A DNA stretch of 64,000 nucleotides from a bacterium (GTDB taxonomy: Bacteria > Patescibacteriota > Microgenomatia > UBA1400 > UBA12108): the NCBI GenBank assembly GCA_043827085.1, contig JBDRPO010000022.1:4481-68480 (forward strand), given 5' to 3'. Positions 2,921 through 55,454 of this stretch are shown here, in pieces. Below the pieces are notes generated by a model, which worked only from the letters and a program-made list of their open reading frames with translations, was not told where the DNA came from and did no database searches. Made by a program: the position numbers and the translations under genes. Every line of letters begins with the position of its first letter. Position 1 is the first letter of the stretch.

Positions 2921-4019
2921 ACACTCCCCAGTCACTAATAGGTTGAATATTCTTGAGAATAAATTGCCACCCAAGTAAATAAATCGGGATAATCAGCACG
3001 GCCATTACCCACCATGCCTTTTTTGGTACTTTCGGTAGGCGTGGCGCATAACCCAAAAGCGCCATGGGTGCAATCGGCAAGGCGTACCTCCCCAAATCCC
3101 GGTGAGCCACGAAAAGTAATATCGCGCCGTATATCCATCCATACGCCTTGACTGTTTTGTCCTTCACCATGGCTAGGCCTAATCCATAAAACACGTAGAG
3201 ATAAATGATGTCTTCCCTCCACATATCACTAATCCAACTCTGCATATTAGAAAATATCTGAAAAGGCGGGAAAAACAGATGCAAGTTATCTCCCGAATGA
3301 AAGTATGCTAAAAGATCTTGGTATCTGAAGCCGTAAAACACAAACAACCCCACCAGTGTTAAGGGCATAATTAAGTAAGGGATAAAATGCTTAGGTTTAT
3401 GCCACATTGCCAAAATATAGCCCGCAAATAATATTATGCCTGGACTCCTGGTTAGTACTGCTAACGCTCCGGCAATTGCACTTGGCCAATACTTTTCTTT
3501 GATTGCCCAAGTTAACGAAACTAGGACAAAAGTCATAAACAAAGGTTCATTACTTCCAACTCCGCGCACCGACAGCATTCGCGCAGGAAAAAATAAGGCA
3601 ATCACGCTCATAATTAACGCCAATCGCCTATTTTTGAGCGTAGTCTCAAAAAACCAATATAGCCCGATAGCCAGTAGGACATTTGTCACAATAACTGCAG
3701 CAAGTAGTGCGTGGGGTGGCGGCAAGGCCAAACTAAAAAACTTGACGATGCCCGCAAAGAGTGGGAAGTGAGCCGCAAAATATATCGGATCATTGCCAGT
3801 CAGAAACTGGGCATTAATCTGCTCAATTACCTGTGGATTATACCAACTTTTTGCCACTACCAGAAAATTAAGGCCGTCAAAATTCTGAACAATCGTTTCC
3901 ATCCCACGTCCCCTGAAATCAATCCCCCCAAAACTACCCGTCTTCAGTATAAATGGAGTCCAAAACACAACCAGTGACATCAAACTCGCGATTCCCACAA
4001 GTAGCAAGTTTTTTCTCAT
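2913..4019 (-). CDS. Polytopic membrane protein, putative GT-C-type glycosyltransferase. Paralog of 35643..36737.
   Basis: Hydrophobic throughout. Shares the N-terminal block NFDGLNFLVVAKSWYNPQ with NWDGPSYVITAISLYNPQ of the 35643 gene. It is the only minus-strand gene in this part of the run. Confidence 0.5.
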   Translation of the reverse strand: MRKNLLLVGIASLMSLVVFWTPFILKTGSFGGIDFRGRGMETIVQNFDGLNFLVVAKSWYNPQVIEQINAQFLTGNDPIYFAAHFPLFAGIVKFFSLALPPPHALLAAVIVTNVLLAIGLYWFFETTLKNRRLALIMSVIALFFPARMLSVRGVGSNEPLFMTFVLVSLTWAIKEKYWPSAIAGALAVLTRSPGIILFAGYILAMWHKPKHFIPYLIMPLTLVGLFVFYGFRYQDLLAYFHSGDNLHLFFPPFQIFSNMQSWISDMWREDIIYLYVFYGLGLAMVKDKTVKAYGWIYGAILLFVAHRDLGRYALPIAPMALLGYAPRLPKVPKKAWWVMAVLIIPIYLLGWQFILKNIQPISDWGVFK

Positions 4020-7005: not shown

Positions 7006-7020
7006 TGCTCGGATCCCTAC

Positions 7021-7077
7021 AAGGTCCGACCTTGAAGGATGAGCCCAACCCGAGCAAAGCGAGGGAAGGTCGGACCT
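7021..7077. promoter_or_regulatory. Inverted repeat or paired palindromic sites in an 80-nt intergenic gap
   Basis: aaggtccgacctt at about 7021-7033 and aaggtcggacct at about 7066-7077 are reverse complements (12-bp arms, ~32-nt spacer). Each arm is itself a near-palindrome (aaggtc-N-gacct). No U-tract follows, so it may be an operator pair rather than a classic terminator. Confidence 0.4.
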
Positions 7078-9725: not shown

Positions 9726-11302
9726 TTATGCGGAAAAATCTCTCTCTAATCATCACCTCTCTAGTCCTCGCGCTCGTAGTCATCTGGCCTATCCGTCAAA
9801 CTGGCATTTGGTACCCCATGCATGACTCGACAAGCGTCACGAGAGTTTTGCTCATGAAAACCGCCATCATGAATGGTCAGATCCCTCCCATTTGGGCAGA
9901 AAATATTAATGGTGGTTTTGGTTACCCACTCTTTCATTTTTACGCACCACTCTTCCATACCATCTCTACACTGTTCTCCTTTTTTATCACTCCCGTCACC
10001 TCGGCCATTAAACTAACCATTTTCCTCAGTATTTTTACCGGTATCTTGGGCTCAGTATATTTTGCAAAACGTTGGGGGAGACTCGCCGCGCTCGTTACCG
10101 GAGTTGCCTTTGCCCTTGCTCCCTACGCCGCTGTCAATATTTATGTCCGCGGAGCCTTTGCCGAATACTTGAGTTTGGCACTTTTGCCTTGGGTTTTGAT
10201 CGTCACCGAAAAAATCACTTCAACTCGCAAAATGGTGGTTGCCGGGGTTTTCCTTTCTCTCTTTGTCTTGAGTCACAATCTTATTCCCATTATTGCCCTC
10301 CCCATGGTCTTGGTCTGGATGATCACCCAAAATAAGCTAAATCTCAAGTTAGTGGTCGGGGCGATCATTCTCTCCGCTCTCCTCTCGGCCTGGTTTGTCC
10401 TTCCTCTTGTGATGGAGAGGGGGTTCACCCAAGCAGATACTATTGCCAAAACTACCAACTATGCCAAACACTTTGTCGAGCCGTGGCAACTCTGGAATAG
10501 TACCTGGGGATTTGGTGGCTCTGCTCAAGGAGTCGAAGATGGGATGTCATTCAAGTTAGGCAAGATTCAGCTTATTCTCGGTATGCTCGGCGCGTTGATT
10601 GCTTTCAGGGAAAAGAAAAAATCCCTAAAACTTATCTCTCTCTTTATATTAATCTCGGTTTTTCTCACTACATCCGCCTCCAAGTTTGTTTGGGATCGCC
10701 TCCCCACTCTCCAAATCGTCCAGTTTCCCTGGCGCAACCTCGGGATTATCACTGTTTTCCTTTCCCTTCTTTCAGGTTTTACCGTAAGCAGAATCAATCA
10801 TAGAGTTTTCCGCTTTGTCGGTGCCTCCTTAATCATGGTTATGTTATTTCTGACAGGTTATAAGTATTTTGTTCCTGAATCCACAAATATCGCCAAAGAT
10901 GAAGTTTCCGACATCGCCTCGGTCGTGCCAGAATATGTCCCGACTTGGTGGAAAATCCCGCCTGCCCAAAGATATGACTTCTACGCTCCCCCCAGTATTT
11001 CCTCAGCCGAAAACGAAACCTCCCAACAAGGACCAGCAGCCGGAGGGTATCATTTCGATTTAGTCGCCACTGATCCTTCGATAATAATTTTTGGTTCCGC
11101 CTACTACCCCACCTGGGAAGGGCGAGTTGATGGCAAAAAAGTGGCAGTATCCCCGAACGGTAATGGCCTTGCCTCGTTCACTATTCCCCAAGGGATCCAC
11201 TCCATCGATTTACGCCAATCCCACACGCAGCTAGAAAAATTTGCCGCGATTATTTCTCTCATCACTTTAGCCATCATGATCAAACTTTATGTCAAAGCTT
11301 AA
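9722..11302 (+). CDS. Large polytopic membrane protein, paralog family B (YfhO-like or PTPS-related GT-C candidate)
   Basis: Conserved N-terminal block WYPMHDSTSVTRVLLMKTAIMNGQIPPIWAENINGGFGYPLFHFYAPL is shared with 22222..23811 and 31909..33522. The C-terminal ~100 aa is a soluble beta-rich tail. The track start is GTG, and an ATG lies 6 nt downstream. Confidence 0.55.
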   Translation: MIMRKNLSLIITSLVLALVVIWPIRQTGIWYPMHDSTSVTRVLLMKTAIMNGQIPPIWAENINGGFGYPLFHFYAPLFHTISTLFSFFITPVTSAIKLTIFLSIFTGILGSVYFAKRWGRLAALVTGVAFALAPYAAVNIYVRGAFAEYLSLALLPWVLIVTEKITSTRKMVVAGVFLSLFVLSHNLIPIIALPMVLVWMITQNKLNLKLVVGAIILSALLSAWFVLPLVMERGFTQADTIAKTTNYAKHFVEPWQLWNSTWGFGGSAQGVEDGMSFKLGKIQLILGMLGALIAFREKKKSLKLISLFILISVFLTTSASKFVWDRLPTLQIVQFPWRNLGIITVFLSLLSGFTVSRINHRVFRFVGASLIMVMLFLTGYKYFVPESTNIAKDEVSDIASVVPEYVPTWWKIPPAQRYDFYAPPSISSAENETSQQGPAAGGYHFDLVATDPSIIIFGSAYYPTWEGRVDGKKVAVSPNGNGLASFTIPQGIHSIDLRQSHTQLEKFAAIISLITLAIMIKLYVKA

Positions 11303-16663: not shown

Positions 16664-18068
16664 TCTCCCCAATTTATTGGTAATAATTTTCCTGGCATCT
16701 ATCTCCTATCTCCTATATTTCAATTTGGGTCGTGACGCCCTGTTCGATTGGGATGAAGGTATCTACGGTGAGCTTGGGGCTCAGGTGTTAGTTACGAAGA
16801 ATATTCTCGTTGCTTTTTGGAATGGTGCACCCTGGCTAGAAAAACCTCCCGGCATCGCCTGGGTTGCTGGAATTGGGATTGCCCTTGCTGGTCCTACTGC
16901 GGGGGGTGCACGTCTTCTCATGCCTCTCATTGCTATCTACACGCTCTACATCGTTTATCGGATAGGTACCCACCTTGGGAGTTCCCGACATGGCTTGATT
17001 GCCGTCGGCGTACTTGCAACCTTCAATTTGTTCTTAGGTAGAACACGCGCGGTCAACACCGACATGCCCCTTCTGGCCAGTATCGTGACCACCATCCTTT
17101 TCCTTCTCGAAAATAGGCCTGCCTGGTGGGTAGCTCTTGCCGTCTTTGGTGGGGTTTGGTTTAAGGGCTTGGCGGGCTTGCTCTCAGTCATCATTACCTT
17201 ACCCCTTATTTTGAATAAATCAAAAACTTACATCTTACATCTTACGTCTTACGTCTTATTACTTATCCTTCCTTGGCATCTTTACGCCCTCATCAGATAC
17301 GGTAGTAATTTTACTACTCCTTATTTTTTCGAACAGGTGGTCAGGCGGGCTACCGCCCAAATAGAATTTCATTTTGAAAATCGCTGGTACTACTTCAAAT
17401 ATCTTTACGATAACTTGGGTCTTGGAGTGCTGATAGTTGCTGGCGTAGGAGCAGCAAGTATTCTCAAAAAGCGGGAAAATCTCTACTTATTATGGTGGGT
17501 TCTCGTGCCTCTTGCTATCTTCACCCTCGCCAAAACTCGGCTGTTCTGGTACATTCTCCCGATTTATCCAGCGCTTGCCCTCCTTGTGAGCGAGGCTATC
17601 GCTCGCTGGCAAAACGGGAAGCATGCCAAAAGCGTCGTTGGAATCATTGCCATCGGGATCTGTTCCCAAGCCATTCTCATGGCTTCTCGCTCAGTCGAGT
17701 TTAAGAAAGTTACTTCTCCCCTGCCTGATCGGCTTTACGTGGCCACTGAACTCGCTAAATTAAATCCTGGCACCTTAGCGGTTCTAGTTCCCCCCTCGGA
17801 GCGCTTAGCCGAAGCGCTTCTTCCGACAATTGCCCGGCTAAGTTCTAGTTTCCGCTATGGTGGTATGCCCTCGGTTGTCTTTTATTATGCTGGCCCGGTT
17901 CAATTTTATTACGACGTAGATAAGTTCGCGGCATTTTGGCAAGAAGCCCAGAATCCTACCGCCATGATCTTTGCCGAAGATAGTAAGCTCATTCCTGCCT
18001 CTTTCCGCACTGTTGTCGCCTCACCTACCTACCTTGGCATTCAAAAGGGGGTTTATGCTCTCCGTTAG
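16623..18068 (+). CDS. ArnT-like GT-C glycosyltransferase (lipid-carrier-dependent, COG1807)
   Basis: LFDWDEGIYGELG first-loop motif, then PPGIAWVAGIG, then more than 10 TM helices. Overlaps the upstream GT2 by 41 nt. Confidence 0.65.
   Translation: MKKSLLSWFKHKNNLPNLLVIIFLASISYLLYFNLGRDALFDWDEGIYGELGAQVLVTKNILVAFWNGAPWLEKPPGIAWVAGIGIALAGPTAGGARLLMPLIAIYTLYIVYRIGTHLGSSRHGLIAVGVLATFNLFLGRTRAVNTDMPLLASIVTTILFLLENRPAWWVALAVFGGVWFKGLAGLLSVIITLPLILNKSKTYILHLTSYVLLLILPWHLYALIRYGSNFTTPYFFEQVVRRATAQIEFHFENRWYYFKYLYDNLGLGVLIVAGVGAASILKKRENLYLLWWVLVPLAIFTLAKTRLFWYILPIYPALALLVSEAIARWQNGKHAKSVVGIIAIGICSQAILMASRSVEFKKVTSPLPDRLYVATELAKLNPGTLAVLVPPSERLAEALLPTIARLSSSFRYGGMPSVVFYYAGPVQFYYDVDKFAAFWQEAQNPTAMIFAEDSKLIPASFRTVVASPTYLGIQKGVYALR
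17230..17257. repeat. Heptanucleotide tandem repeat inside the ArnT-like CDS
   Basis: acatctt acatctt acgtctt acgtctt: four 7-nt units, two identical pairs. Encodes YILHLTSYVL. Confidence 0.6.
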
Positions 18069-18828
18069 TACCCAAATAGCGCGTGACGATTCGCTTGTAG
18101 ATTTTGCCAGGATGCTCAAAAGTGTTTCCTTCGCCGACGAAATCTTTGTCTTCAATATGGAGCGGAACGATATGCGAGCCCTGGAACTTTTTCAGCAATT
18201 CTCAGCTCGCGTCATTAATGTCAAAACTCCTAAAATCGTCGAAGAAATACGCGCCCGCCAGGTTCGCGAAGCGGGAGGTGACTGGGTACTCATTCTAGAT
18301 TTTGATGAAGTAATTCCAGGAGAACTCCGCGGCGAGATCGAATCAATCATCGAAAACAAAGCCTCTTGTTCTGCTTACACGATCCCCCGCGACAATTATT
18401 CCCTTGATTATCCCATGACCCACGGAGGGTGGGAACGCGACTATGTCATACGGCTACTACGCAAAGCTGACTTTATCGATTGGCCCAAAAACATCCATAG
18501 CACTCCCCGTTTCAAAGGTAGTATGGTCAAAACGCTCCATAGCATGGAGCATCACAAGGACGCCAGTCTCTCCCAAATGGTTGAGAAAACCAATCGTTAT
18601 AGTGACATCGAAGCCGATTTATTTTTTCAGGGCGGCCTGCCCCCAGTTGACTCATTTACCCTCGTCAGGAAACCTGTAATGGAATTTATCCGGCGCTACA
18701 TCCTCAAGAAAGGTTTTCTTGATGGTTGTATCGGTTTGATCCAAGCTCTCTACCAAGGTTATTCCGTCTTTATCACCTACGCCAAGCTCGCCGAGCTCCA
18801 AACTAACTATAAATCCAGTAAAAGGTAA
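18055..18828 (+). CDS. GT2-like glycosyltransferase (WaaE/KdtX-like subgroup)
   Basis: Start taken at the internal ATG (MLSVSTQIARDD...). LILDFDEVI acidic motif ... YTIPRDNY ... C-terminal GFLDG block shared with 31122..31904 and domain 2 of 14121..15740. Confidence 0.55.
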   Translation: MLSVSTQIARDDSLVDFARMLKSVSFADEIFVFNMERNDMRALELFQQFSARVINVKTPKIVEEIRARQVREAGGDWVLILDFDEVIPGELRGEIESIIENKASCSAYTIPRDNYSLDYPMTHGGWERDYVIRLLRKADFIDWPKNIHSTPRFKGSMVKTLHSMEHHKDASLSQMVEKTNRYSDIEADLFFQGGLPPVDSFTLVRKPVMEFIRRYILKKGFLDGCIGLIQALYQGYSVFITYAKLAELQTNYKSSKR

Positions 18829-18858
18829 TACTACGATTATTCGAATAATTAGAGTATT
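18827..18858. promoter_or_regulatory. 32-bp near-perfect palindrome, upstream copy, ending 2 nt before the start of the TrpR-like gene
   Basis: aatactacgattattcgaataattagagtatt. Identical to the downstream copy except for 3 nt in the left arm (acg vs cta). Centred on ttcgaa. Confidence 0.5.
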
Positions 18859-18860
18859 GT

Positions 18861-19304
18861 ATGTCACAAGTATCACGACACAAACTAAATCAAAAAGTTT
18901 ACGATAAAATATTCTCCTTGTTTCCACAATTTCTAGGTAGACTTAGTAGTCAGGGTCATGCGCAAGTTGTCGTCAACGCTCTATTTTCAACAACAGAAAG
19001 AACTATCATAGCCAAGCGTATTGCCACAGCCTTTATGTTAGTCAAGGGCTATACTTACTCAGAAATAAGTTCAAAACTATGTATTAGTTATGGCACGATC
19101 GGAAAAATTGCTGAAGTTACTAAAAATGCCGATACAAGGTTCGTCAAAGAATTACAATTAATTTCGCAAGAGCAAGCGTTTGGCGAGTTTCTCAATGCCA
19201 TTGGTTACCGAGTCGCTAAACTTCTACCTCCCAAAGGTGGCAATTGGTCAGTATGGAGGCGTAATATAGAGGAAGAACGTCGTCAAGCAGAACAATCATT
19301 TTAA
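18861..19304 (+). CDS. TrpR/YerC-family helix-turn-helix DNA-binding protein
   Basis: 147 aa. The segment STTERTIIAKRIATAFMLVKGYTYSEISSKLCISYGTIGKI follows the TrpR/YerC pattern (..AIAQRLEVARML..G.SQREIS...GVS.ATITRG). It is the only non-glycan gene in 40 kb. Confidence 0.55.
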   Translation: MSQVSRHKLNQKVYDKIFSLFPQFLGRLSSQGHAQVVVNALFSTTERTIIAKRIATAFMLVKGYTYSEISSKLCISYGTIGKIAEVTKNADTRFVKELQLISQEQAFGEFLNAIGYRVAKLLPPKGGNWSVWRRNIEEERRQAEQSF

Positions 19305-19334
19305 TACTCTAATTATTCGAATAATTAGAGTATT
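19303..19334. promoter_or_regulatory. 32-bp perfect palindrome, downstream copy. Overlaps the stop of the TrpR-like gene and lies about 22 nt upstream of the GT4 start.
   Basis: aatactctaattattcgaataattagagtatt is exactly self-complementary. It sits in the promoter/RBS region of the 19357 GT4 gene. Confidence 0.55.
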
Positions 19335-19356
19335 GCAATGTATGTAAGGTGTATTT

Positions 19357-20394
19357 ATGACTAATACAAGAAAAGCTCTGATCGTCAGCCCCTATCTCGA
19401 TCACCTCGGGGGTGGGGAGCGTTATATGCTCTCTGCAGCCAGCGCGCTTGAGTCGCTAGATTATTCGGTTTTCTTTTCTTGGGATAATCTGGCAGAAATA
19501 GCTTCTCTTGCTACCATGCTCGGCATTAAACTCAATAATCCTCAACTCGACCCTGTTATCAAAAAATTCTATTTCGGAAGTAATCCTCTTTCTATGTACC
19601 TCTCAACCAAAAATTATGACGTCGTCATCTATCTCTCGGATGGTTCTCTTCCACTCTTGGGTAGTCGGAAAAACATCATTCACATGCAAGTACCTTTCCA
19701 CCACGTGAGCGGCAGGTCATGGAAAAATCAATTCAAGAAAATGTTTGTTCATCACGTTGTCGTTAATTCTCTTTTCACCAAACGGATTATTGACCAGGAA
19801 TTTGGTTTGAGCTCAACCGTCCTCTATCCACCCGTAGATGGAATTGTAGGGACTCCGCAAAAAGATAACCTCATTCTTTCGGTCGGTCGATTCGAGCCAT
19901 CCTTAAACACCAAACATCAGGATATCTTAATTGAGGCGTTTAAGCTCCTTTCACCTAACTTGCCCGGCTGGAAACTAGTTCTCGCCGGTGGCTCGTCCAG
20001 TGACGAGTGGTTAACCAAGCTCAAAAACATGGCAGTCGACTTACCCATTGAATTCGCTCCTAATATTGCTCATGCTGACCTATCTACTCTCTATAGCAGA
20101 GCAAAAATTTACTGGCATGCTGCAGGGTTTGGAGTCGATGAGCAAAAAAATCCAGAACTCACCGAACACTTTGGCATTAGCACCGTTGAGGCTATTTCTG
20201 CGGGTTGTCTCCCTCTCGTCGTTCCCTATGGCGGCCAGCGAGAAATTGTAGTAGACACCAACCTTCATTGGACAACTATCGAAGAACTAAATACCAAAAC
20301 CCTTTGGCTATCCCAGAATCCTCAAGTACCGAGCCTCGACATTTCTCTTTACTCTCCCGCCAATTTTGCCACCGAACTAAAAAAATTACTATGA
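19357..20394 (+). CDS. Family 4 (GT-B) glycosyltransferase
   Basis: LSVGRFEPSLNTKHQDILIEAF ... FGISTVEAISAGCLPLV is the classic GT4 E-x7-E region. Confidence 0.75.
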   Translation: MTNTRKALIVSPYLDHLGGGERYMLSAASALESLDYSVFFSWDNLAEIASLATMLGIKLNNPQLDPVIKKFYFGSNPLSMYLSTKNYDVVIYLSDGSLPLLGSRKNIIHMQVPFHHVSGRSWKNQFKKMFVHHVVVNSLFTKRIIDQEFGLSSTVLYPPVDGIVGTPQKDNLILSVGRFEPSLNTKHQDILIEAFKLLSPNLPGWKLVLAGGSSSDEWLTKLKNMAVDLPIEFAPNIAHADLSTLYSRAKIYWHAAGFGVDEQKNPELTEHFGISTVEAISAGCLPLVVPYGGQREIVVDTNLHWTTIEELNTKTLWLSQNPQVPSLDISLYSPANFATELKKLL

Positions 20395-21653
20395 AATTAA
20401 AACAAATTTTCACTTCCAAAATATTTATGCTGGGGCTTCTTATTCGTCTCCTCGTCATGCCTTTTACCGGCCACTATGATCTCCGCGGGATTAATTTCGC
20501 GCTCTATAACCTTCCCTTTAAAGGGATCAGCAATGTCTACACAGTCGCAGAGAAAGGTCCCCTTGATTATCTCGTCGACGTAAACTTCGGCCGCGACTAC
20601 TTTATCTACCCACCCCTAACATATTTTACCCTCGGCTCATTTATGACGGTATTCAAGCCTTTCTATGGTCCAGAGTTCGTGAACTGGATAGAAGGGTACG
20701 GGAGCGATATTAGTAAGGTTCTAACTCACCCTCAGGTTTGGCGCTATCTATTTCTCATGAAACTACCATATTTATTTTTTGACATCCTCTTGCTCTTTGT
20801 CTTACTCAAGTTCTTCGGCAAACCCAAGGATCGTGAATGCGCGCTCAAATATTGGTGGCTCAACCCCATCGTGATCTTCCTGCCTTACCTTTGGGGACAA
20901 TTCGACATCATCCCATCAGCTGTCATGCTCGCAGGAGTCTTGTATGGCGTCAAAAACAAACCTTACCACGCCGCCATTCTTTTTGGTCTCGCCGCCTCCT
21001 TCAAAAATTATCCTCTCATTCTCTTGCCATTCTTAGCCATTATTCTAGGCAAAAATCTTTGGCAAATGCTCAAACTTTTCCTTGCTGGCCTTGCCCCCTT
21101 TGTTCTGACCACCATACCTTTTTGGGGACACGAATTTTTCCGTCGCTCAGTTTTATTCTCCTGGCAATCACAAAAAATGCTTGATTTCCAGCTAGGTCTC
21201 GGCGGTACTGATGTCATCTATCCTTTTGTGATTGGCTACGCCCTCATCCTCCTTTGGACGCTCTACCATCTGCGGGGGAAGTATGAACTCTTGTATCTCC
21301 CGATGGTCATGACTCTCACTTGGTACTACGCCACCACCAACTTCCACCAACAGTGGTTCATGTGGGTCTTGCCATACCTCGTGATCCTCGCCGTGCAAGA
21401 TAAGAAATTGTGCCTCATTGGCTTAGGGGTCATTGGACTTTTCTTTCTCCGTCTTATTGAGCTACAAGCCAACGTCACGAGCGAACTATTTATTTGGCTC
21501 GCCCCCGCCTTTGATGACATCCCCAAATCCCGCTATCTCATTGATATTTTATACGATATCGGCAAGTTCCGAGGGTTAGTTAACAGTCTCTTTGTTGCCT
21601 TATCCTTCTTCGTTTCCGTTTACTTAGTCACAAAATCTCAGGTCAAATCATGA
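20391..21653 (+). CDS. Polytopic membrane protein, putative GT-C/DUF2029-like mannosyltransferase candidate
   Basis: Start at the internal ATG (MKLKQIFTSKIF...), giving an ATGA overlap. More than 10 TM helices. GHYDLRGINFALYNLP loop. No soluble domain. Confidence 0.45.
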   Translation: MKLKQIFTSKIFMLGLLIRLLVMPFTGHYDLRGINFALYNLPFKGISNVYTVAEKGPLDYLVDVNFGRDYFIYPPLTYFTLGSFMTVFKPFYGPEFVNWIEGYGSDISKVLTHPQVWRYLFLMKLPYLFFDILLLFVLLKFFGKPKDRECALKYWWLNPIVIFLPYLWGQFDIIPSAVMLAGVLYGVKNKPYHAAILFGLAASFKNYPLILLPFLAIILGKNLWQMLKLFLAGLAPFVLTTIPFWGHEFFRRSVLFSWQSQKMLDFQLGLGGTDVIYPFVIGYALILLWTLYHLRGKYELLYLPMVMTLTWYYATTNFHQQWFMWVLPYLVILAVQDKKLCLIGLGVIGLFFLRLIELQANVTSELFIWLAPAFDDIPKSRYLIDILYDIGKFRGLVNSLFVALSFFVSVYLVTKSQVKS

Positions 21654-37526: not shown

Positions 37527-37530
37527 AAAA

Positions 37531-37552
37531 CCCGGTGTACAAGGACACCGGG
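37531..37552. promoter_or_regulatory. Stem-loop immediately after the permease stop
   Basis: cccggtgt-acaagg-acaccggg, a perfect 8-bp stem. It is flanked by AAAAA on the 5' side, so it reads as hairpin+TTTTT on the minus strand. Only a weak U-tract on the plus strand. Confidence 0.4.
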
Positions 37553-37600
37553 TATGTTAAACAAAATAATACTAAAAAATCACTCACAAGTCAAAAAAAG

Positions 37601-37626
37601 GCTCGGCATACCGAAGCATGCCGAGC
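37601..37626. promoter_or_regulatory. Second stem-loop, about 22 nt upstream of the ABC ATPase start
   Basis: gctcggcat-accgaagc-atgccgagc, a 9-bp perfect stem. An A-rich spacer separates the two hairpins. Confidence 0.4.
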
Positions 37627-52666: not shown

Positions 52667-54178
52667 ATGTACAAAAATCTTGTCATTATCTCCATCGATT
52701 CTCTCCGTGCCGATGCCACCAACTTTTCTCACCAGGCAATTCATGGTCGTGCAGAACCACGACTTAAAACTCCCAACCTAGACAAGCTCGCAGGTCAAGG
52801 CTCATACATAGAAAAAGCTTATTCCACCAATACCTATACCACCGCTGCTCACGCTTCCCTCTTTACCGGCCGTTACCCTTACCAACATCAAGTCCGGGCC
52901 TTCCTTGATTTCCACAGCACTTTAAATCCCACAACACCTACCCTTGCTGAGATTCTGCACAATCAAGGTTTTCAGACATTTTTTTATTCCGATGTCCCAG
53001 AATTATTTTCCTCAAACGACATTTGGCGCGGTTTTAGAGTCAAAACTAAAAATAATACTAACTGGTTCTTTAACTCACTAGAAGAAGCCAAGAAAGACCG
53101 GAATTTTATCTTCCTCCACCTTTTTGATGTTCACGAACCATACTTATATATCGAAGATCAAAACCACAAACCCAATGCCAATGACGATTACTACGACTCA
53201 GTGACAACCCTGCAGAAGAAACTGGGATATAAATCCAAATTGAATCCCAAGAAAAATCCCCACGATTTCTGGCAAGAAATTCGTCAACATTTTCGCGCGG
53301 AGCATCTCAAAGAGTATCCTTATCTTTACCCCCTGTATCTTGCGGGAGTAAATTACTTTGATAAATACCGACTGCCATATTTTTTGAATCAATTTGACCA
53401 TCTGGGCTACACTAGTGACAATACTCTCTTCATTTTCCTGAGTGATCATGGCGAAGGACAAACCACTTTCGATACCAATAATATTATTAAATTTAATCAC
53501 GGGGGTGACATTACCGAAGACGTTCTCAGAATATTTCTGACTATTTCTGAGTCAGGTATTAATCGCAAGCTCATGTCCATCGCCGATCTCTCTAATCTAG
53601 CATTGTCTTTACTAGGAGTCCCATACCCCAAACCAATTGAATATTCACTCAGCCGCGCCGTTATTCCTCCGCATCATCTTTACGCCGAATCACACTACAA
53701 TATTGTCGGCGACAAACTGGCTCATGGATTAACTGATCAAGGTACTCTCGCGCAAATTACCTCACACGTCTTGGGTAGCCGGGCATTTATCACCGATTCT
53801 CACAAATATATTCTTCATGGTGAGCCGGAATACCTCGCCTCTTCCCATTCAACCGAACCTGCCAGCGTCGTGATTGATCGCTTATTCCAGTCTATCTTCT
53901 ATCGATTTTCCGATTCGACTTCCAAGAAATCATTACTCGGCGCCCATGCTCATTCTCCACTTGAACCCGATGCCCTTGCGTACAAACTTCTGATTTCTCC
54001 CGAAAAAACTCTCAAGCCTTTTACCGAAAGCTTTGAAACTACCGACCTAGCTGATCATCCAATTGACGACACGTCCTGGACAATCCAAGCCAAATTTCAT
54101 TGGCTATCTGCTCTCACAACCCACGTCCTCCATCCCCGCCGTCATTATCGTTTTTCCAAACTAATCAATAATTACTGA
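52667..54178 (+). CDS. Alkaline-phosphatase-superfamily phosphodiesterase/pyrophosphatase (ENPP type I phosphodiesterase-like), with a ~150-aa C-terminal extension
   Basis: Metal site ISIDSLRAD. Thr nucleophile block TNTYTTAAHASLFTGRYPYQHQ matches the ENPP pattern T-x3-H-x-S-x2-TG-x-YP-x2-H. HLFDVHEPY and FLSDHGEG second-metal motifs. Not a Cys/Ser-type sulfatase, because the CxPxR motif is absent. Confidence 0.65.
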   Translation: MYKNLVIISIDSLRADATNFSHQAIHGRAEPRLKTPNLDKLAGQGSYIEKAYSTNTYTTAAHASLFTGRYPYQHQVRAFLDFHSTLNPTTPTLAEILHNQGFQTFFYSDVPELFSSNDIWRGFRVKTKNNTNWFFNSLEEAKKDRNFIFLHLFDVHEPYLYIEDQNHKPNANDDYYDSVTTLQKKLGYKSKLNPKKNPHDFWQEIRQHFRAEHLKEYPYLYPLYLAGVNYFDKYRLPYFLNQFDHLGYTSDNTLFIFLSDHGEGQTTFDTNNIIKFNHGGDITEDVLRIFLTISESGINRKLMSIADLSNLALSLLGVPYPKPIEYSLSRAVIPPHHLYAESHYNIVGDKLAHGLTDQGTLAQITSHVLGSRAFITDSHKYILHGEPEYLASSHSTEPASVVIDRLFQSIFYRFSDSTSKKSLLGAHAHSPLEPDALAYKLLISPEKTLKPFTESFETTDLADHPIDDTSWTIQAKFHWLSALTTHVLHPRRHYRFSKLINNY

Positions 54179-55454
54179 GATAATGCTTCCCTGCATATAG
54201 TATCTCCAGGTTTTTTGGCTTTTCACATTGTTCATTTATTCGCACTCCTACTGGATAACTCATCATGTTAACGAGTTGCCCAACTCCCGTCGCCCAAAGT
54301 TCGTACTCTCCCATCCCAGTGAGGCATAAGGTATCGTATTTACTCCAATCATATTTCTCGACCACTTCTTTCTGGTACTGCTCCGCGGCCTGCACTCCCC
54401 GTGCCGAAAACGAATTTATCACCCACTGAGACCTGGTTGTAACTGACATATAGATTGCCAGTCCTAGGAGTAACCATCTCTCCCTCTTCCCCCCCGCGAT
54501 CATCAAACATACCCCTATCAAACTAAACTCCAGGTAAAAAGGCAACGCTCTACCTAGGAAATAAAAGGGGAGTAGCCCGACCGCTCCCCACCAACAAGCG
54601 AACCGAAACAATTGTCTGTTCTTTCGCCACACGTTCCACACAGCTAACCCCACAAGAATAGCAAACGACACACTGACCAAGTCGTAATACGAATGAGGAG
54701 GGTAGGGCATCCCCATCTGCCAGCCATGGCGCCAGTTGATGAGCCACAACCCATAATCAAATAAATTCTTCCGCAGAGTCTCTAAGTTAATAACATAGCT
54801 GTAGGCTGCTCCTTGTTGGCGGTACTGTCCCAATTTCAAAAAAAAATATATTATCGTTGGTACCCAATAAACCAAATAATACTTCCAACGAACCCTCTTC
54901 TGCCAAAGAATGTAACTCAGCACCAAAAGTACACTCACAAAACTTTCTTTACTAAACATCGCCAAAATAAATAATCCCCAGCTAGCAATAAACCATTCTT
55001 TCTGATACTTCGATACTTCGAAGTATCGAAGTAACAACAAAATAGATCCAAGTGAGAAAAGTAAAAATACTTGATCCACCAGCCCAGTGAGAGTGAACAC
55101 ATCAAAAAAGACGATGTGCGACACACCGTAGGTTACCGCCGCGGCGACTGCTCCCCATTTCGCTTTGCTTAGACCTTTCGCGAGTAGATACACAAGTATG
55201 ACGTTTAAGCCGTGGAGCACTATTGGTACCCAATGCATTGCACTAATATTGTTTCCTAAAAGGTGGTAGATAGAAAATAGTGAGAAGGGGATCGGTCGGT
55301 ATGTCCCTCCGATATCTGCAAATAACTCTCTGACTCGTCCCCAGCCACCCGGGGCGCTCATATACAGCCAAATATCATCTCCCCCCACAAAATAATGGGT
55401 AAACCCACTATAATAAAGGAGTATGAAAGCGAAAAGTCCTGTGATTATCCACAT
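54165..55454 (-). CDS. Polytopic membrane protein, paralog family C (DD motif)
   Basis: See 11289..12665. Contains an internal 28-nt perfect palindrome at about 55006-55033. Its 5' end overlaps the 5' end of the divergent 55423 gene by ~32 nt. Confidence 0.5.
   Translation of the reverse strand: MWIITGLFAFILLYYSGFTHYFVGGDDIWLYMSAPGGWGRVRELFADIGGTYRPIPFSLFSIYHLLGNNISAMHWVPIVLHGLNVILVYLLAKGLSKAKWGAVAAAVTYGVSHIVFFDVFTLTGLVDQVFLLFSLGSILLLLRYFEVSKYQKEWFIASWGLFILAMFSKESFVSVLLVLSYILWQKRVRWKYYLVYWVPTIIYFFLKLGQYRQQGAAYSYVINLETLRKNLFDYGLWLINWRHGWQMGMPYPPHSYYDLVSVSFAILVGLAVWNVWRKNRQLFRFACWWGAVGLLPFYFLGRALPFYLEFSLIGVCLMIAGGKRERWLLLGLAIYMSVTTRSQWVINSFSARGVQAAEQYQKEVVEKYDWSKYDTLCLTGMGEYELWATGVGQLVNMMSYPVGVRINEQCEKPKNLEILYAGKHYLSNY

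Follow-up and report, generated by a model that had tools for sequence, protein, structure and literature searches.

A predicted regulator gene between two long palindromes

We analysed a 64,000-nucleotide (nt) stretch, hereafter the window, of a patescibacterial contig (JBDRPO010000022.1, assembly GCA_043827085.1). In it, a gene encoding a 147-amino-acid (aa) predicted helix-turn-helix (HTH) protein of the TrpR fold lies between a GT2-like and a GT4 glycosyltransferase gene and is bracketed by two 32-bp dyads, copy 1 upstream and copy 2 downstream. Table 1 lists these features together with a third site elsewhere in the window, and related loci are cited below by their L numbers. A first-pass annotation made from the sequence alone had placed both palindromes at the coordinates given in Table 1, which are correct. 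It had also put the upstream one 2 nt before the start codon and the downstream one at the stop codon, and both positions were borne out: copy 1 ends 2 nt before the ATG at 18861, while copy 2 starts at the second base of the TAA (19302-19304). The intergenic gaps around the gene measure 32 and 52 nt, not the 33 and 53 nt reported earlier.

Both copies had been described as perfect palindromes, which is true of copy 2 over its full 32 bp. Copy 1 differs from copy 2 by three mismatches at adjacent-to-near positions, all in the left arm (ACG for CTA), and is therefore not a perfect palindrome, as only 13 of its 16 arm pairs are self-complementary. Its arms are unequal (left TACTACGATTA; right, reverse-complemented, TACTCTAATTA), and this asymmetry is kept in L099, whose protein is 76% identical (left TACTTCGATTA, right TACTCTAATTA). 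A weaker dyad extends around copy 2, spanning 19292-19345. Both copies are far beyond chance: 100 dinucleotide-preserving shuffles of the window returned 0 matches at three or fewer mismatches, and by our own estimate a perfect 32-bp palindrome is expected ~ 64000 x 4^-16 = 1.5e-5 times in 64 kb. Two independent Logan contigs were observed to terminate at or inside the downstream palindrome (L001, end 10445-10472; L099, end 3443-3471). Perfect palindromes longer than the assembler k-mer probably break such assemblies, and, if so, these loci would be systematically fragmented in k-mer-based public assemblies.

Table 1. Genes and palindromic sites of the window discussed in the text (ORF, open reading frame; SD, Shine-Dalgarno sequence; AF2, AlphaFold2).
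Feature	Coordinates	Strand	Remarks
TrpR-fold HTH gene, 147 aa	18861-19304	+	Pfam, PDB profile search, AF2 model
Copy 1, upstream dyad	18827-18858	no strand	AATACTACGATTATTCGAATAATTAGAGTATT; 28-mer core of the family at 18829-18856
Copy 2, downstream dyad	19303-19334	no strand	AATACTCTAATTATTCGAATAATTAGAGTATT; perfect 32-bp palindrome overlapping the stop codon
GT2-like gene, upstream	18055-18828	+	257 aa in the L001 gene call (longest ORF from 17971); stop codon shares 2 nt with copy 1
GT4 glycosyltransferase gene, downstream	19357-20394	+	Pfam Glycos_transf_1, 2.1e-20; own SD-like AAGGTG at 19346-19351
Site 3, perfect 28-bp palindrome	55007-55034	no strand	TACTTCGATACTTCGAAGTATCGAAGTA; in frame inside a coding sequence, encodes LRYFEVSK; missed by the first-pass annotation
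GT-C/PMT_2-like membrane glycosyltransferase gene, 429 aa, host of site 3	54165-55454	-	homologues carry PF13231 or source-named GT39

The protein and its family

The 147-aa ORF matched Pfam Trp_repressor (PF01371) with 31.5 bits, passing the gathering score of 27, in an alignment of residues 22-99 to profile positions 7-85 of 88. This was its only Pfam match above the gathering cut-off; the rest were weak and of HTH type. A profile comparison with TrpR and YerC had been suggested as a check on the original HTH call. A PDB search with a profile of 33 homologues matched 3kor, 3frw, and 3g1c, which are YerC-like structural-genomics proteins, and the Pfam match likewise supports the regulator call. 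The AF2 model is all-helical, with a predicted local distance difference test (pLDDT) score of 77. When compared with E. coli TrpR chains in Foldseek, it gave a probability of 1.00 and target-normalised template-modelling (TM) scores of 0.75-0.84, and it superposed over ~ 91-94 columns (residues about 10-105) with a root-mean-square deviation (rmsd) of 1.6-2.0 Å. The ~ 45 additional C-terminal residues carry a conserved LPPKGGNWSxWR motif and were modelled as two helices of lower confidence. No catalytic domain was found in the protein by Pfam or in the AF2 model, nor any HUH/Y1 motif or nuclease domain.

The TrpR/YerC-like label thus stood at the level of Pfam family and fold but not at that of NCBIfam, where the protein reached neither the cut-off of the TrpR equivalog TIGR01321 (18.3 vs 67.25 bits) nor that of the YerC/YecD (HisR) family TIGR02531 (18.2 vs 42.2 bits). 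By these cut-offs, it is an orthologue of neither TrpR nor YerC/HisR. The 83 close homologues are nearly all exactly 147 aa long. An exhaustive profile search (E<=1e-10) placed 1175 clusters at 50% identity in the family, and nearly all of the best 150 have lengths of 145-150 aa. The organism names available for homologues are Microgenomates, Collierbacteria, Woesebacteria, and "Patescibacteria group". Several metagenome-assembled genomes with a Patescibacteria-type locus carry record titles of uncultured Pseudomonadales or Gammaproteobacteria (L002, L004-L007, L009, L010, L012, L014-L017), and these titles are most likely taxonomic mislabels. Our literature searches found nothing describing the 147-aa family or its palindromes in bacteria of the candidate phyla radiation (CPR).

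Dyads accompany TrpR-like genes and change with them

We fetched 20 genome loci with the protein alone, so that the set was unbiased for palindromes, and 19 TrpR-like genes or loci were usable. A long dyad was found just upstream of the gene in 18 of the 19 relatives, and it was repeated directly after the stop codon in ~ 12. The palindrome-gene-palindrome layout is recurrent in relatives from Microgenomates-type genomes. Between lineages the dyad sequence shifts while its two-fold symmetry is retained, as seen in TACTACGATAATTCGAATTATCGTAGTA (L004-L006), TGTATCGATGATTCGAATCATCGATACA (L008), and TACTTCGATGATTCGAATCATCGAAGTA (L009). The dyads of more distant paralogues are unrelated to these (TATGCTACCATGTTCTAGAACATGGTAGCATA in L012, GAGTGACATAATGAATTAATTCATTATGTCACTC in L015, ACTCACTTGAATCGATTCAAGTGAGT in L016, and TTTACTATAAATCAATCGATTGATTTATAGTAAA in L017). 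The class of dyad follows the predicted recognition helix: TTCGAA-centred dyads pair with KVS[HQTY]GT, ATGTTCTAGAACAT dyads with KV[GS]L[SA]TV, and TGAATCGATTCA dyads with HVSNSA. The CAYILS genome has three paralogues and three unrelated dyads. This coarse co-variation of protein and DNA is our main argument that the palindromes are the cognate binding sites of the TrpR-like proteins. Within the TTCGAA class, the variable positions of the dyad (5-7 and 10) were not seen to correspond one-to-one to sub-groups of the protein. The first-pass proposal of an autoregulated repressor with its own operator is, as far as comparative sequence evidence goes, well supported by the upstream dyads and by the class-specific dyad of each paralogue group.

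The position of the dyad relative to the start codon also differs by class. In the TTCGAA class it ends -1 to 13 nt from an ATG that lacks an SD, and this holds in the window, where no SD precedes the 147-aa gene. The other paralogue classes have an SD, and their dyad lies further upstream. SD-less starts abutting a dyad suggest a leaderless or near-leaderless mRNA whose promoter may overlap the dyad. Centre-to-centre spacings of flanking dyads (471-494 bp) did not show the 10.5-bp periodicity of DNA looping with helical phasing, a result that is uninformative at this distance. One paralogue of 137 aa combines two kinds of dyad (L022 941-970 / L074 11072-11101), with a TTCGAA-class dyad upstream and a different dyad, ATGTGATCATGTACTAGTACATGATCACAT, downstream.

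The role of copy 2 is less direct. It had been described as a second operator for the next operon, covering the promoter and ribosome-binding site of the GT4 gene. We found that the AAGGTG of GT4 sits downstream of copy 2, so the ribosome-binding site is not covered; no sigma-70-like promoter was predicted at the copy. A second operator acting on the next operon is plausible and no more than that: the downstream copy is retained in loci whose next gene is unrelated or convergent (L037, L061, L069), and the L003 orthologue has GT4 and no downstream copy. The copy is therefore tied to the regulator unit no less than to GT4.

Base conservation within the dyad

To describe what the dyads conserve, we used 91 unique TTCGAA-centred sites. 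Their 28-bp consensus is TACT-N3-AT-N-A-TTCGAA-T-N-AT-N3-AGTA, with the conserved bases at fixed positions. Each half-site reads T-A-C-T-[T/A/C]-C-[G/A/C/T]-A-T-[G/A/T]-A before the TTCGAA centre; positions 1-4, 8, 9, and 11 are near-invariant together with the centre, and positions 5, 7, and 10 are variable. Fixed bases at fixed positions, including a TTCGAA that would be the loop of a hairpin, suggest protein contacts rather than a stem. The mismatches between arms point the same way, with 24 G:U, 35 A:C, and 29 other mismatches and hence no G:U bias, in a test for which sites were not oriented by the direction of transcription. The in-frame sites of L091 and L094 have CGACGA in the left arm, where the consensus CGATGA would create an in-frame TGA. 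Their right arm keeps the consensus TCATCG, although the synonymous TCGTCG would regain pairing. Taken with the conserved asymmetry of copy 1, these patterns indicate that complementarity is not the property maintained.

Perfect 28-bp palindromes make up 45 of the 91 sites. Several others are hybrids whose arms differ at three positions together, for example ACG|CTA and TCG|CTA. At the variable positions, different sites within one locus are 67% identical, against ~ 36% expected at random, and this within-locus similarity fits a genome-specific binding preference.

The junction is polymorphic among relatives

The GT4 gene is highly conserved (60-74% identity in the best 120 clusters listed), and loci fetched through its protein gave a survey of the junction that is unbiased for the palindrome unit. 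In L095-L098, this junction holds GT2-like orthologues with 63-70% identity. Eight genes of the window have collinear counterparts in L097 (49-70% amino-acid identity), yet L097 has no TrpR-like gene and no palindrome. There and in L095, which is also empty, an ATGA overlap joins the GT2-like gene to GT4. In L098, a solo palindrome, CACTACCATAATTCGAATTAAGGTAGTA, stands at the junction and the TrpR-like gene is missing. The palindrome-gene-palindrome state occurs in the window, L002, L004, L006, and L007. An alpha/beta-hydrolase gene is added in two further arrangements: palindrome-TrpR-palindrome-hydrolase followed by GT4 in L096, and palindrome-hydrolase-palindrome-TrpR-palindrome in L008 and L046. 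The junction therefore exists in at least five states.

As an alternative to regulation, the first-pass annotation had raised the idea of a small cassette inserted into a tightly overlapping operon, and had proposed that orthologous loci be compared for presence or absence of the unit. This comparison recovered empty, solo-palindrome, one-gene, and two-gene states, and the empty loci with their ATGA overlap, along with the solo palindrome, directly support the insertion. In many lineages the TrpR-like and GT4 genes are found on one contig, and their proteins have diverged to a similar extent (56% and 66% identity), which is consistent with vertical descent.

Sites elsewhere in the window and in related genomes

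Site 3 lies at the position of a 9-aa indel among orthologues of its host gene. Class variants fill this position in L090, L091, and L094; L089 and L092 have the short form with no site. In the outgroup L093, a loop of about the same length is present but contains no palindrome, and the comparison is thus compatible with insertion as well as with in-situ origin of the site. Other in-frame sites were also seen: a TTCGAA-class palindrome inside a GT4 gene (L039 10941-10968 / L066 628-655, ...AYK YYDDSNHRS NIKIEFCGDGE) and another that is probably in frame inside hisS (L027 96-123). The comparison with orthologues covered site 3 of the window, and the reading frame in L039 and L066 was assigned by eye.

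When metagenome contigs were scanned with TACTNNNATNATTCGAATNATNNNAGTA, 67 loci were recovered. A TrpR-like ORF adjoins only about a quarter of the scanned sites. By Pfam, other neighbours were NUDIX, peptidase S51, alpha/beta-hydrolase, HhH-GPD, and major facilitator superfamily (MFS) genes and the gatA-gatB junction; reading the flanking translations added gatC, lysS, gltX, nrdD, ftsK, and tgt/rpsG. The sites are mostly found in intergenic gaps with 0-20 nt to spare on each side, and in many cases a stop codon immediately precedes the site, in a tandem or convergent gap. At the gatA-gatB junction (L029 2110-2137), a TTCGAA-class palindrome lies 7 and 10 nt from the stop and start. Our crude gene caller labelled 16 sites as intragenic, several of them falsely; in L068/L023, for example, a gene with an AAGGAGG SD begins right after the site.

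Flank similarity was found to end at the palindrome edge, with no resemblance beyond the 28-32-mer. Density is low, at three sites in the 64-kb window and one or two strict matches on each of six matched contigs (104-574 kb). Many dispersed copies had been expected to favour a miniature inverted-repeat transposable element (MITE). Related sites are indeed dispersed, but their low density, the lack of similarity beyond the palindrome, and their position-specific conservation speak otherwise; with no element body, no shared flanks, and no target-site duplication seen, we rejected a MITE or other high-copy repeat. A phage origin was rejected as well, since viral contigs and phage records yielded neither the palindrome nor a homologue of the protein.

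Some intergenic regions hold arrays of three to five different long palindromes (L031 4574-4926; L045 3556-3688 / L048; L077 2324-2403; L075). The arrays include classes that flank other TrpR-like paralogues, such as the TGAATCGATTCA type, which hints at combinatorial control by several paralogues.

Proposed model and alternative explanations

We favour a model, with a probability of roughly 60%, in which the gene encodes an autoregulated TrpR-fold repressor with cognate palindromic operators, the whole having entered an operon junction as a module and serving a small dispersed regulon. The protein would be a dimeric HTH repressor of a Patescibacteria-specific subfamily with an additional C-terminal tail, and the dimer would bind the 28-bp dyad. 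Occupation of the upstream site would turn its own gene off through promoter occlusion or a roadblock. Occupation of the downstream site would gate initiation at GT4 and the genes after it, or read-through into them from the glycosyltransferase genes upstream, and the translationally coupled ATGA junction of relatives would have become a regulated break in the operon. Alternatively, the downstream copy may serve as an auxiliary operator or insulator of the regulator unit and not GT4, given its persistence where the next gene is convergent. Site 3 in the GT-C gene and the sites elsewhere in related genomes would form the dispersed regulon. The model builds on the observed anatomy, the fold, the conserved pairing of gene and dyad, the class-specific dyads, and the presence/absence polymorphism; from these we infer binding of the protein to the sites, repression by that binding, the promoter locations, and the nature of the ligand.

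Several observations weigh against this repressor model. A consensus scan of 17800-20500 predicted no sigma-70-like promoter at either copy. Across sites, -35 boxes scoring at least 4/6 and lying 16-18 nt upstream of an AATNAT core were found on 11 of 47 gene-start sides (23%) and on 19 of 139 other sides (14%). This enrichment is weak and not convincing, and we placed no promoter; only L043 has the textbook TTGACA-17 nt-AATAAT arrangement. The functions of neighbouring genes are mixed, ranging over NUDIX, peptidase S51, aminoacyl-tRNA synthetases, gatCAB, NrdD, and glycosyltransferases. Sites between convergent genes, at gatA-gatB, and in frame inside coding sequences are odd for classic promoter operators, and with half of them perfect, the sites appear unusually perfect for natural operators. 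In addition, the two arms of one site agree in 82% of variable-position comparisons. Set against the 67% between sites of the same locus and the ~ 36% expected at random, this points to a preference specific to the genome, with a weaker additional tendency towards symmetry itself. In our interpretation, that tendency could be supplied by template-switch correction of quasi-palindromes. Finally, palindrome-bounded genes act as modules at one junction, which also fits a role in recombination.

Such a role was considered as a separate explanation, in which the palindromes are the boundaries or crossover sites of a gene-cassette system in which genes such as the TrpR-like and alpha/beta-hydrolase genes would be gained, lost, or rearranged by site-specific or hairpin-mediated recombination, with the TrpR-like protein as cargo or as an accessory DNA-binding factor. 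The sites could be operators at the same time. The five or more junction states fit this explanation, as do the palindromes that form clean indels between genes, one of them at an in-frame indel in a coding sequence, the high share of perfect palindromes, and the hybrid sites, which look as if arms had been swapped at the centre. We nevertheless regard it as unlikely. The 15 ORFs scanned in part of the window and the listed gene calls of the loci retrieved through an encoded protein included no recombinase, integrase, or transposase, and the 147-aa protein itself lacks a catalytic domain. On their arm patterns, we rejected a simple attB x attP origin of the hybrids, with copy 1 as the only hybrid in the window and L056 requiring two hybrid parents. 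The vertical descent suggested for the TrpR-like and GT4 genes, the missing target-site duplication, and the absence from viral contigs and phage records also count against cassettes. A broader proposal is that TrpR-fold proteins and long palindromes are self-contained modules that spread in Patescibacteria genomes, insert between genes or in frame inside them, and rewire operons, their sites doubling as operators and as recombination or insertion boundaries. We consider this speculative and quite improbable; if true, the modules would amount to REPtron analogues without HUH enzymes or to mobile operators of a new kind.

The palindromes might instead act as RNA hairpins independent of the TrpR-like protein, as 5' or 3' stabilisers, processing sites, factor-dependent terminators, or translation blocks beside the start codon. 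Strong RNA folds were predicted for copy 2 (-19.6 kcal/mol, z -4.7) and site 3 (-18.1 kcal/mol, z about -5); many sites directly follow stop codons in tandem or convergent gaps, and arms within a site are more alike than a genome preference alone predicts. Copy 1 folds only at the level of shuffled sequence (-7.2 kcal/mol, z -0.4) and keeps its asymmetry, however, and neither the bases fixed across lineages, would-be loop included, nor the lack of a G:U preference is what pairing would produce. No intrinsic terminator was predicted in 17800-20500, where the stems are A+T-rich without a T-run or U-tract. No Rfam 15 family matched the palindromes, the only matches being spurious sub-threshold microRNA hairpins at 23.7 bits vs 99. 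RNA hairpins would also leave unexplained why each paralogue group has its own dyad beside its own gene, and we find this explanation very unlikely. A REPtron-like selfish system, in which the small protein mobilises or maintains palindrome copies and regulation is a side effect, would account for a ~ 150-aa gene bracketed by palindromes with copies in intergenic gaps elsewhere, for in-frame palindromes inside coding sequences, and for the resemblance of sites within a locus. The all-helical TrpR fold of a protein without an HUH/Y1 motif or nuclease domain, the low site density in the window and on the six matched contigs, and the lack of an extended element body give it only a very slim chance.

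Comparison with known systems

TrpR-family regulators (TrpR, HisR/YerC) bind ~ 20-bp palindromes, and about half of hisR genes have an autoregulatory site (PMC9413887). HisR (YerC/YecD), the TrpR-family histidine repressor of Firmicutes, is shorter than 100 aa, usually single-copy, and binds cacTTTAnnnnnnTAAAgtg at his genes; HisR and TrpR lengths lie under 100-110 aa (PMC9413887). The system described here shares with E. coli TrpR (trpO, aroH, and trpR autoregulation) its fold, Pfam family, palindromic targets, and a site next to the regulator gene itself. The TACT/AGTA boxes at the outer ends are reminiscent of the TrpR GNACT half-site, and the L022 dyad ATGTGATCATGTACTAGTACATGATCACAT has a core, GTACTAGTAC, that also occurs in TGTAcTnGTnnACnAgTACA and resembles the E. 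coli trp operator; this last point is a resemblance only. The system differs from TrpR in its NCBIfam score, its length of 147 aa with the C-terminal extension, a dyad of 28-32 bp instead of ~ 20 bp with TACT boxes 12 bp further apart, sites on both sides of the gene, and its place in a glycan operon of a CPR bacterium instead of among aromatic amino-acid genes. Among solved structures, those that match best by sequence are of the HisR (YerC) type (3kor, 3frw, 3g1c), and HisR, too, has a palindromic operator, with autoregulation through a site of its own in about half of genomes. The present protein falls short of the HisR cut-off, and its genomes have several paralogues each, other motifs, and no his genes nearby.

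Other palindromic systems are similar in layout. Repetitive extragenic palindromes (REPs) and their REP-associated tyrosine transposases (RAYTs) likewise combine a small gene bracketed by short palindromes with scattered intergenic copies. RAYTs are HUH/Y1 transposases and REPs number in the hundreds, whereas the present system has few sites and a non-catalytic HTH protein. Integron cassettes and their attC sites also form gene-palindrome arrays at one junction, with differences in presence, absence, and order between genomes. No integrase was found in the gene sets given above, and attC sites are imperfect and 57-141 bp long, while the sites here measure 28-32 bp, come close to perfect symmetry, and keep a conserved sequence at fixed positions. 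Rickettsia palindromic elements (RPEs) are a parallel for a palindromic element in frame within the loop region of a protein-coding gene. They are about 100-150 bp long, occur at high copy number, and have no associated binding protein, unlike the 27-28-bp sites here, which are of the same class as those flanking the TrpR-like gene. What sets the present system apart from known TrpR-family systems is the distinct 147-aa subfamily, the much longer and often perfect dyads, the gene-bracketing layout, and the modular presence and absence at a junction.

Patescibacteria (CPR) have tiny genomes, are mostly uncultured, and carry few recognisable transcription factors, and to our knowledge almost nothing is known about their gene regulation. 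With at least 1175 clusters and a long dyad of its own for each paralogue group, the family provides a ready set of putative regulator-operator pairs that can be tested without cultivation. Envelope glycosylation is central to the episymbiotic lifestyle of Patescibacteria, and the module is a likely control point for it, because it splits a cell-surface glycan operon whose counterpart in relatives is unbroken. The clean presence and absence of the unit, the solo palindromes, and the in-frame sites raise the question of how such perfect operators arise and move.

Other hairpins and dyads in the window

Two further gaps in the window contain repeats of other kinds. Between two glycosyltransferase genes lies another kind of hairpin or dyad motif, CCTACAAGGTCCGACCTTGAAGG, with GGAAGGTCGGACCTC after it (7016-7038 and 7066-7077). 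Its core, CAAGGTCCGACCTTG, recurs in L033, L034, L050, and L073, where TTCGAA-class palindromes in tandem lie immediately beside it, ahead of a NUDIX-family gene. The 122-nt gap that separates an ABC-2 permease gene from an ATP-binding cassette (ABC) ATPase gene contains two G+C-rich hairpins, ACCCGGTGTACAAGGACACCGGGT and GCTCGGCATACCGAAGCATGCCGAGC, at 37530-37553 and 37601-37626, which could be terminator- or attenuator-like elements.

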